From IMG/VR virus record IMGVR_UViG_2721755646_000011: a stretch of 64,000 nucleotides of DNA; one strand, 5' to 3'. Positions 53,948 through 55,650 of this stretch are shown one piece after another; position 1 is the stretch's first letter; the number at the start of each line of letters is the position of its first letter. This DNA is from a virus (taxonomy: Duplodnaviria > Heunggongvirae > Uroviricota > Caudoviricetes). A program made the translations under genes and the position numbers. A model generated the notes under the pieces. It had not been told where the DNA came from, did not search any database, and saw only the letters and a list, made by a program, of their open reading frames with translations.

Positions 53948-54706
53948 TCAAGTGCCTTTCCTGGTCCAGCCATATTTTTTGAATGCAGGCGCCGCTTCAT
54001 CGGTTTGTAGCCATTCTGCAAATCGACGGGTTTCATCATTTGCATCCTGACGTACTGTAATGTTCATATCACGCCATATCACGTAGTCTGGCGCTATTTC
54101 CACGACATCACCAATTTCTGGATTACTGGCTGCCCAGTCAGCCCAGGTTATCCAGACATCTGCTCCAGGCTGATTCTCAAGAGCCTTACGTGCAGTTCCG
54201 CTATTGGGCGCATATAAAATAATATTTTTTCGGATTGCGGCGACAGTTTCTATATTCCCTTTACGTCCGGCAATATCTTCCCAGACGCCAGTGCCTGATG
54301 TATTACTGGTACCACCACCATCATTAACAATTACGCCAATCCCAGGTCTGGTCAGGTCGTCAATACTCCGGATATTTTTAGGATTACCTTTCTTTACCAG
54401 TAAAATACTTTTTCGCAGATAAAGAGGCTGAATATCTTTTTCACTGAAGCTGTCTTTATGGTCCCGAATGATAGCCAGAGCAGATTGTTCTGATGCGCCA
54501 AACAAGATATCTGCATTTTTTTTGGCATCTTCATTCCATTTGTTCTGTGGGCCGTAATGAACGTTCACTATAATACCTGTTTTTTCGGCATAAAGTTTGG
54601 CTGCATCAAGCAAGGCTGTATGCGGGCCACCAGGACCATACAGATTGATATCAGCATAAGCAGCAGAAGACAGGAATATTAAAAAACCTGCCATTATGTT
54701 CCTCAT
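53948..54706 (-). CDS. orphan periplasmic solute-binding protein, ModA-like
   Basis: 252-aa ORF with signal peptide, SBP-like pattern and ModA-like C-terminus (AFKKYGW); no permease or ATPase adjacent. Confidence 0.55.
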   Translation of the reverse strand: MRNIMAGFLIFLSSAAYADINLYGPGGPHTALLDAAKLYAEKTGIIVNVHYGPQNKWNEDAKKNADILFGASEQSALAIIRDHKDSFSEKDIQPLYLRKSILLVKKGNPKNIRSIDDLTRPGIGVIVNDGGGTSNTSGTGVWEDIAGRKGNIETVAAIRKNIILYAPNSGTARKALENQPGADVWITWADWAASNPEIGDVVEIAPDYVIWRDMNITVRQDANDETRRFAEWLQTDEAAPAFKKYGWTRKGT

Positions 54707-55124
54707 AAAAAACTCCTTTTATTGGTTATCATGAAATAAAGTTATAAACACTACAAATAATATATATTACATCCAGATAAACTTATCCGACTTTACCTCG
54801 TGCATAGCTTGTTATTTAAAGTCAACAAAATAAGGAAAATTATACGCATATTGAAGAGTATAAACCTTACATGTTGATTACATTTTTGTAATCAACATCC
54901 TGTTTGGAATAGCCAGCCTTTAATGGATAACTATTTCTGACAATGCAATGAGTATAATCAAGTCCATCTTCCACTGAGAATTAGAGGCGGCATGCTTTTT
55001 CCGGCTCTTGCCGGATATCCGTAATTGTCCATAATCTGCAGATTTATACCTTCTGCATGACCTGTCAGCGAAAATTTGTCCGGTGTTTCTACGGGAATGA
55101 CATCAAAAGTTACACGCACTCGCG

Positions 55125-55650
55125 TTACCGTGTAGACCTACTTTCCTGCACTTGCAAGATCACAGTGGTGTAACCGTAACAGGAATTTATTCTCTGGACC
55201 GGCAGTAAATCCCTGAGTGGCGTGGTTCCCATATCAATTTCCCGCCAGGCAGCCTCCATTGCCAGCGTACAGGCTGGAGCCATGACCTGCCCTTTAAATC
55301 TGGCCCGACCATCCCACCGGACGTGTTCTTCTCCCCTGAACTTAGGTACAGTCATCTCCAGTGGCACAAAAGTGTCAGCGCCATAATTTTTGACCGTTAT
55401 CGCGCTACGGATATTTTGTTGACTGGTGAAAATCACCCCGCAGAATCAGGCTTATTCCCTTAACCTGGGCTTTCATCCTGACCGCCGCCTCACTACGACC
55501 AATCAGACTGCCGATGCATTTTACCTTCATTGTTAGTATCATGATTTCAGGCCTGCACCATCCGCTCATTGCCCGGACTTCCGACAAATCCCGGCAACCA
55601 TATCCCGGTGCTTGTTCAGCTCCCGCAGCGCGGCGCAGACTCGCTCCCAC
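55125..55650 (-). pseudogene. frameshifted hypothetical gene (two overlapping ORFs)
   Basis: ORFs 55405-55650 and 55125-55436 overlap in different frames and appear to be one disrupted gene. Confidence 0.25.

Follow-up and report, generated by a model that had tools for sequence, protein, structure and literature searches.

The Escherichia coli gene paa, also called adfO, has carried its names since 2003. Its product, Paa, belongs with PEB3 of Campylobacter jejuni and AcfC of Vibrio cholerae to one family of binding proteins, and the copy described here lies at positions 53948-54706, on the minus strand, of a 64,000-nucleotide stretch of viral DNA (Caudoviricetes; IMG/VR record IMGVR_UViG_2721755646_000011), which as a whole we call the window. 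paa is a routine polymerase chain reaction marker, both in veterinary typing of enterotoxigenic (ETEC) and enteropathogenic (EPEC) strains from pigs and in the typing of E. coli strains that produce Shiga toxin. A review of the O-islands of O157:H7 equates adfO (z2053, O-island 57) with Paa and states that it is always accompanied by ckf. According to the same review, adfO mutants adhere poorly to HeLa cells, cause fewer attaching-effacing lesions, and show lower production and secretion of several other proteins, and paa/adfO mutant phenotypes have been reported in two pathotypes. In O157:H7, paa is induced in the contents of the bovine rumen and rectum.

For the two relatives more is on record about ligands. 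For PEB3, binding of 3-phosphoglycerate and of further metabolites that contain phosphate has been reported (Min 2009, cited through PMC12469816 and PMC3417527), and the small anionic ligands named in the literature are 3-phosphoglycerate, phosphoenolpyruvate or citrate for PEB3 and sulfated glycans for AcfC. AcfC was found in the periplasm by fractionation; the purified protein bound heparin sulfate, chondroitin sulfate and mucin in an enzyme-linked immunosorbent assay (ELISA), and AcfC affects mucin chemotaxis and intestinal distribution (PMC5976639). One review doubts that the PEB proteins are adhesins at all. Two modes of action, as an adhesin or as a periplasmic anion receptor, stand against each other in the literature on Paa. 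As a discovery, the gene in the window matters little, for it is a named and studied gene that RefSeq already annotates.

Identity of the gene and family of its product

The gene and the start of its product are located as follows.

53948-54706, minus strand: paa (= adfO, z2053), an open reading frame (ORF) of 252 amino acids taken from the ORF list; 100% DNA match to RefSeq paa
54653-54706, minus strand: signal peptide, residues 1-18, with predicted cleavage between AYA and D; read from the sequence (R2, hydrophobic core, A-Y-A)

The ORF is preceded by an AGGAG ribosome-binding site 6 nucleotides 5' of the ATG, and RefSeq names it "paa: AcfC family adhesin Paa" (WP_001449026.1). When window positions 53700-55700 were used as a 2-kb query, the DNA was found to be 100% identical in many complete genomes from E. 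coli serotypes O157:H7, O26, O111 and O103, and 572 of the 5426 complete E. coli genomes contained at least 80% of the query. Phage-collection matches to the DNA of the paa region were limited to "PPompW" prophage records, where the product is annotated as Paa or adherence factor. It is very probable, then, that the locus is paa/adfO with the anatomy of a prophage cargo gene (a "moron"), carried by the PPompW, or O-island 57, prophage at ompW.

The N-terminus of Paa reads as a Sec-type signal peptide, MRNIMAGFLIFLSSAAYA followed by DINLYG, with an inferred A-x-A cleavage site between the two parts; the first residue of 2hxw, a crystal construct of PEB3, aligns to Paa D19. Because Paa has no cysteine (count 0), it is not a lipoprotein. 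The mature protein, of about 230 amino acids, has the form usual in the AcfC/PEB3/Paa family, namely Sec-exported and not lipid-anchored. The Pfam match to SBP_bac_11 (E 5.5e-34) takes in nearly all of the mature protein, residues 20-247, and positions 1-226 of the 227 in the profile. A search of PDB sequences gave PEB3 (E 1e-81) and AcfC (E 3.5e-81) as the best matches, over residues 11-248, and BLASTP put the identity across the whole mature protein at 54% with PEB3 of C. jejuni and at 52% with AcfC of V. cholerae. This full-length similarity places Paa in the AcfC/PEB3/Paa family, and identity above 50% to two solved structures, together with the SBP_bac_11 coverage, points to a class II periplasmic-binding-protein fold. 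Sequence comparison thus establishes the predicted gene product as the Sec-type precursor of a protein of about 26 kDa, with a class II solute-binding fold and a place in this family.

A preliminary description of this DNA, made from its letters alone, had taken the gene for a secreted solute-binding protein of 252 amino acids, and rightly so, though it did not recognise paa/adfO as a named gene. It had also seen a ModA-like C-terminus, which is true in a weak sense only: the modA model TIGR01256 matches residues 212-246 and no more (E 1.7e-3; 18.3 bits where the cutoff is 62.5), and the full-length relationship is to AcfC and PEB3. Annotated ModA proteins are 24-27% identical to Paa. The sulfate-binding protein 1sbp appeared in the PDB search at E 3.5e-4, and the Sbp/CysP models NF008022 and TIGR00971 scored 19-22.6 bits where their cutoffs are 155-308. 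Membership in ModA, TupA or Sbp was therefore rejected, the curated NCBIfam scores being far under cutoff and identity to ModA about 25%. ModA is too distant for the prediction of a ligand, and PEB3 and AcfC are the informative relatives.

One stretch of likely relevance to the ligand is kept in Paa. The conserved SNTSGT loop, S134-N-T-S-G-T139 in Paa, aligns to S136-T141 of PEB3, so that T136 and S137 of Paa correspond to T138 and S139 of PEB3. The PEB3 numbering is fixed by a difference between PDB chains at residue 135, which is E in 3fir and K in 3fjg, and puts T138/S139 within the loop. In the 2009 work of Min and colleagues, T138 and S139 of PEB3 reportedly contact the ligand, and the T138A/S139A double mutant reportedly lost stabilisation by ligand. 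In an alignment of nine sequences, Paa, PEB3, AcfC and one homologue from Sulfitobacter carried SNTSG (Paa residues 134-138), which was deleted in homologues from Acinetobacter, Agrobacterium and Comamonas, a pattern that suggests two subfamilies with putatively different ligand pockets.

A gene without a transporter and the possible action of Paa

For window positions 1-25247 and 36083-64000, which have near-identical counterparts in RefSeq, it was borne out that the binding protein is encoded without a permease or ATPase, as the preliminary description had stated: the annotation of these counterparts lists no gene for an ATP-binding cassette (ABC) permease or ATPase. Between 25247 and 36083 the window aligned in part only, at 91-98%, to phage tail and head genes, and about 25248-26952 had no alignment to an annotated record. 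The flanks of paa are phage genes (DUF1627 and hok/sok) and a fimbrial relic, which agrees with the earlier proposal of a lone cargo gene in a prophage. The reading of the locus as a fragment moved here from a transport operon of the chromosome, with host genes on either side, was rejected: the checkable parts of the window have no annotated ABC genes, and members of the family stand alone as a rule.

In order to describe the state of the family, relatives were collected at one genome per species, which returned 419, of which 80 loci were kept. The queries run against their six-frame ORFs were one ABC ATPase and two permeases of ModB type, drawn from two genuine ModA loci that were also the positive controls; a permease was found adjacent in both controls and an ATPase as well in one. 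An ABC ATPase of any kind lay within 6 kb in 10 of the 80 loci, and a permease and an ATPase stood directly beside the binding-protein gene in just two (L029, convergent, and L046, on the same strand; L numbers are our locus labels). None of four plasmid-borne homologues, at 36-43% identity, had transporter neighbours. With a permease and ATPase in only 2 of 80 loci, the lone state is normal for the family and did not result from capture by a phage, and the family-wide want of a partner transporter argues against a classical role in uptake.

No neighbour was conserved across all 80 loci, and those that recur are confined to particular clades: a histidine kinase in 12 loci, an extracytoplasmic function (ECF) sigma factor in 10, an anti-sigma factor in 7, a LysR regulator in 6 and a TDT-type transporter in 5. 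These labels are based on reading of representative sequences and annotations, not on a domain search. Environmental members of the family (L044-L093; L009, L010) often stand beside regulators and not transporters, with phoBR as the neighbour in Acinetobacter. The Sulfitobacter plasmid homologue adjoins a sulfite oxidase and a c-type cytochrome.

For the function of Paa we favour an indirect mode of action as a periplasmic anion receptor, to which we give a probability of about 0.5. Paa would be exported to the periplasm and would there bind a small anionic ligand, such as a phosphorylated or sulfated metabolite, in a cleft lined by the SNTSGT loop. Its effect on adherence would be an indirect one, through sensing, chemotaxis or envelope physiology, and not that of a surface adhesin. 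The preliminary description had thought of sequestration of an anion or of interaction with a host transporter; both ideas are live but unproven for Paa, whose published phenotype is adherence and the formation of attaching-effacing lesions.

The chief alternative is that Paa is a true adhesin which reaches the surface or the medium, binds epithelium or the sulfated glycans of mucus, and aids the first steps of attaching and effacing. RefSeq and the phage records call it an adhesin or adherence factor, the adfO mutants of the O-island review adhere less to HeLa cells, and the binding of purified AcfC to heparin sulfate, chondroitin sulfate and mucin would suit such a role. We nevertheless consider it rather unlikely. 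The sequence of Paa offers a Sec signal only, with no lipobox, beta-barrel, autotransporter or fimbrial features, and its fold is that of a periplasmic binding protein; AcfC is periplasmic and takes no part in cell adhesion, and the adhesin label of the PEB proteins has itself been questioned in review. Moreover, the adfO mutant also makes and secretes less of other proteins, and this wider secretion defect suggests an indirect effect. An uptake role without a linked transporter is a lesser candidate: Paa would resemble PEB3 in taking up, for example, 3-phosphoglycerate or phosphoenolpyruvate, and would pass the ligand to a transporter encoded elsewhere on the E. coli chromosome, which is the host-transporter idea of the preliminary description. 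The retained SNTSGT ligand loop and the adjacent permease and ATPase at L029 and L046 speak for it. It appears improbable in the face of the other 78 loci and the four plasmid homologues, all without an adjacent transporter; the literature covered identifies no partner transporter for PEB3, AcfC or Paa, and a mobile single gene that needs a specific resident permease would be an unlikely design.

It may also be asked whether paa does anything in O157:H7, or is inert cargo of a defective prophage whose reported phenotypes are strain-specific or polar. The PPompW prophages are described as defective, with multiple genes inactivated, and the fimbrial gene that adjoins paa is dead. The paa ORF, in contrast, has stayed intact, with 100% conservation in many serotypes, even as the gene beside it decayed, and the copies on plasmids and in other species, at 75-94% protein identity, are mostly intact as well. 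With transcription induced in bovine gut contents and mutant phenotypes in two pathotypes, inert cargo is highly improbable. Only a slight chance is left for other modes of action or for no function of Paa.

Several points weigh against the periplasmic receptor that we favour. The evidence on ligands concerns homologues, and none of it Paa itself. The position of PEB3 K135 is occupied by T133 in Paa and by V in AcfC, and with this residue replaced, the ligand preference may differ from that of PEB3; in the 2009 work of Min and colleagues, the K135E change is said to have abolished stabilisation of PEB3 by its ligand. The original papers call Paa an adhesin, and Batisson and colleagues reportedly found in 2003 that antibodies to Paa reduce attaching-effacing lesions, an effect that would fit a surface-exposed Paa better than a purely periplasmic one. 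The phenotypes of the homologues also differ, AcfC being without effect on cell adhesion in V. cholerae (PMC5976639). Finally, the promoter and terminator of paa, listed in the next section, are predictions at the level of sequence patterns, and read-through from the early-right operon of the phage is possible.

A broader idea, which we put forward tentatively and hold to be doubtful as it stands, is that Paa, AcfC and PEB3 make up a widespread family of stand-alone periplasmic anion receptors, neither adhesins nor parts of transporters, and that the genes of this family hardly ever adjoin ABC genes and often lie beside ECF sigma/anti-sigma pairs, histidine kinases and LysR regulators. If so, phage-borne paa would give E. 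coli a new sensory input, for instance a phosphorylated or sulfated metabolite of the host or its mucus, and that input would steer chemotaxis or programmes of the envelope and of secretion. For AcfC, some of this has been suggested before (PMC5976639).

The foreign block and the prophage around paa

The features next to paa are the following.

53457-53759, minus strand: hok/sok type I toxin-antitoxin locus ("ckf", z2054), directly downstream of paa; Pfam HOK_GEF E 1.7e-21, Rfam sok
53928-53941, minus strand: terminator-like hairpin with a run of U, just 3' of the paa stop; pattern scan, RNA fold -18 kcal/mol, z -1.9
54707-54910, minus strand: AT-rich stretch (26.5% GC) upstream of paa, holding its ribosome-binding site and a presumed promoter of its own; recognised by its GC content and shared with the plasmid copy
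54867-55400, minus strand: PapH-like fimbrial minor-subunit pseudogene; RefSeq "fimbrial protein; frameshifted; internal stop"
55405-55569, minus strand: phage ORF of 54 amino acids, apart from the fimbrial relic; RefSeq WP_001505071.1, phrog_30109 E 6e-17
55566-56246, minus strand: DUF1627 (YdaW-like) gene; Pfam DUF1627 E 5e-93, phrog_630 match

A foreign block of about 1.8 kb (window about 53802-55596) separates the phage replication module from hok/sok. DNA homology to Rac-type phages breaks off near 55597, where DUF1627 ends, the last gene before paa that these phages have in common with the window; homology to 933W-type phages (hok/sok, the sokW region) resumes at about 53801. Neither Rac-type nor 933W-type phages carry paa at this position. 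The block is a mosaic of a small phage ORF, a dead PapH-like fimbrial remnant and a paa segment of 1.0 kb.

The paa segment, 54910-53888, consists of the AT-rich upstream region, the gene and the terminator-like hairpin, and exactly this segment is shared with an IncF plasmid of pig ETEC at 86% DNA identity, the proteins being 93% identical. GC content is 44% in the paa coding sequence and 26.5% in the upstream region, while the flanks are at about 50%. No strong sigma-70 consensus was found within 54707-54910 by pattern scan, the nearest promoter-like site on the minus strand being at 54980-54951; a promoter of its own for paa within the upstream region is therefore putative. The hairpin at 53928-53941 also falls inside the segment common to the plasmid copies. 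On IncF plasmids of pig ETEC (L003, NZ_CP122714.1 and others), the paa variant, at 92-95% protein identity, is flanked by IS1 and IS1203 and lies beside repA; RefSeq names this allele only "substrate-binding domain-containing protein" and not paa. The copies in E. albertii, Citrobacter, Edwardsiella and on a Salmonella plasmid have the gene alone in common with the window, and across plasmids and other species the gene is mostly intact at 75-94% protein identity.

The fimbrial relic is the remnant of a gene that bears no relation to transport. Window positions 55372-54908 show 85-86% DNA identity to an intact gene for a protein of 195 amino acids, which is the second gene of chaperone-usher operons in one pig strain and on one plasmid; weaker, partial similarity to papH was also seen. 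The intact protein matches Pfam Fimbrial (PF00419), and no Pfam match was obtained for the fragments of the relic. The relic lacks the first approximately 82 nucleotides, with the start codon and signal peptide, and has a 10-bp deletion near 55205, a CAG to TAG change near 55141 and a 5-bp deletion near 54972, and its 3' end is replaced beyond 54908. An intact chaperone-usher fimbrial subunit is ruled out by the lost 5' end, the two frameshifting deletions, the stop codon and the replaced 3' end. The fragments of the relic are carried first by ORF 55125-55436 and then by ORF 54958-55119.

The preliminary description had spoken of two overlapping ORFs upstream of paa that looked like one disrupted gene. 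A disrupted gene does exist there, the fimbrial one at 54867-55400, but the ORFs that were joined do not make up one gene. The only overlapping pair in the range described is 55405-55650 and 55125-55436, and a single frameshifted gene from these two was rejected: 55405-55569 belongs to a phage family, and 55125-55436 aligns to the fimbrial gene. ORF 55405-55650 is a mechanical one, which runs through the 54-amino-acid phage ORF and then, out of frame, across the 3' end of the DUF1627 gene.

The 54-amino-acid ORF begins at an ATGA overlap with the stop codon of DUF1627 and has a 57% identical homologue in phage D6. Its match to phrog_30109 extends over profile positions 1-41 of 61 only, and the joining of the fimbrial and paa DNA may have replaced its 3' end. 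The phage collection yielded no paa-free phage that has the full-length gene at this position.

With the phage ORF matched over 1-41 of 61 positions, the relic abutting the paa segment within 3 bp, and the 1.0-kb segment itself found on plasmids, paa entered the prophage as part of a patchwork and not by a clean insertion. The number of genome records at 99% identity or more was nearly equal for the relic (543) and for the 2-kb paa query (542), which fits one assembly event followed by spread with the prophage. The relic as part of a mobile paa unit was considered and rejected: the copies on plasmids and in E. albertii, Citrobacter, Edwardsiella and Salmonella share with the window nothing beyond paa and, in some cases, about 200 bp on its upstream side.

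The gene order is known from the annotation of a 99.9%-identical genome, where the lambdoid prophage adjoins ompW. From the ompW end there follow integrase, excisionase, exonuclease and dicB; the repressor and cro; ydaT, a DnaT-like gene and a P-like replication gene; DUF1627, the 54-amino-acid ORF, the fimbrial pseudogene, paa and hokD; DUF968, RusA, DUF1133 and a DNA methyltransferase; and two tRNA genes ahead of the lysis, terminase and head genes. paa thus takes a place in the early-right region, between the replication module and the hok/sok locus. Within that locus, Rfam sok (RF01794) scored 104 bits at 53610-53759, and an Rfam scan of 52500-56500 found sok alone. RefSeq hokD (51 amino acids) maps to 53457-53612; the 70-amino-acid ORF at 53457-53669 is an upstream extension of it and may represent an overlapping mok-like frame.

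Other parts of the window may be mentioned briefly. The tRNA genes, tRNA-Arg and tRNA-Ile, map from the 99.9%-identical genome to about 48750-48985 (approximate, since the alignment has small indels), directly downstream of the phage DNA methyltransferase (49024-50082) and ahead of the lysis module. A second phage integrase at 4560-5690 is followed by a partial ompW pseudogene at 5736-5861, and the two together mean that there are two ompW-type prophages in tandem, or one inside another; such tandem or nested ompW prophages have been described for some O157:H7 strains (PMC8112680). Between both prophages lies an exchangeable effector locus, 6990-19873, with espM1, nleG, nleF, nleH1-2, nleA and DUF1076 genes, interspersed with the insertion sequence ISEc8 and remnants of IS3, IS630 and IS256. 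Its GC content of 32-49% is in keeping with this content of effectors and insertion sequences.

Comparison with known systems

Set beside Paa/AdfO of E. coli, as known from porcine EPEC O45 (Paa) and from O157:H7 (z2053), the gene in the window is the same gene without differences, and the prophage, the neighbours (hok-like "ckf" and DUF1627) and the integration site by ompW all equal those of the window. The reference strains differ from the window prophage only outside paa, for example by an IS1203 in the replication genes of PV15-279 and by variant tail genes. ModA, Sbp and CysP share the broad Pfam family SBP_bac_11 with Paa, but their local matches are weak, and ModA genes adjoin a permease (in one control locus an ATPase too), whereas genes of the Paa family do not.

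PEB3 (Cj0289c; PDB 2hxw, 3fjg and 3fir) has the same length as Paa and is likewise labelled an adhesin. It is also encoded by a lone gene, for in the two C. jejuni loci ABC genes come no nearer than 3.7 kb or are lacking, though this gene is chromosomal and paa is phage-borne. Ligand binding has been reported for PEB3 and none for Paa, and PEB3 is N-glycosylated in C. jejuni. AcfC (VC_0841; PDB 4jb7) resembles Paa in being the product of a gene on a mobile element, in its case a pathogenicity element, and in being a colonisation factor, and its locus in V. cholerae (L033) is without an adjacent transporter, as is that of Paa. The acfC gene lies in an operon, 3' of the chemoreceptor-like acfB and under the control of ToxT (PMC5976639); paa, unlike acfC beside acfB, stands in its prophage without a chemoreceptor neighbour.

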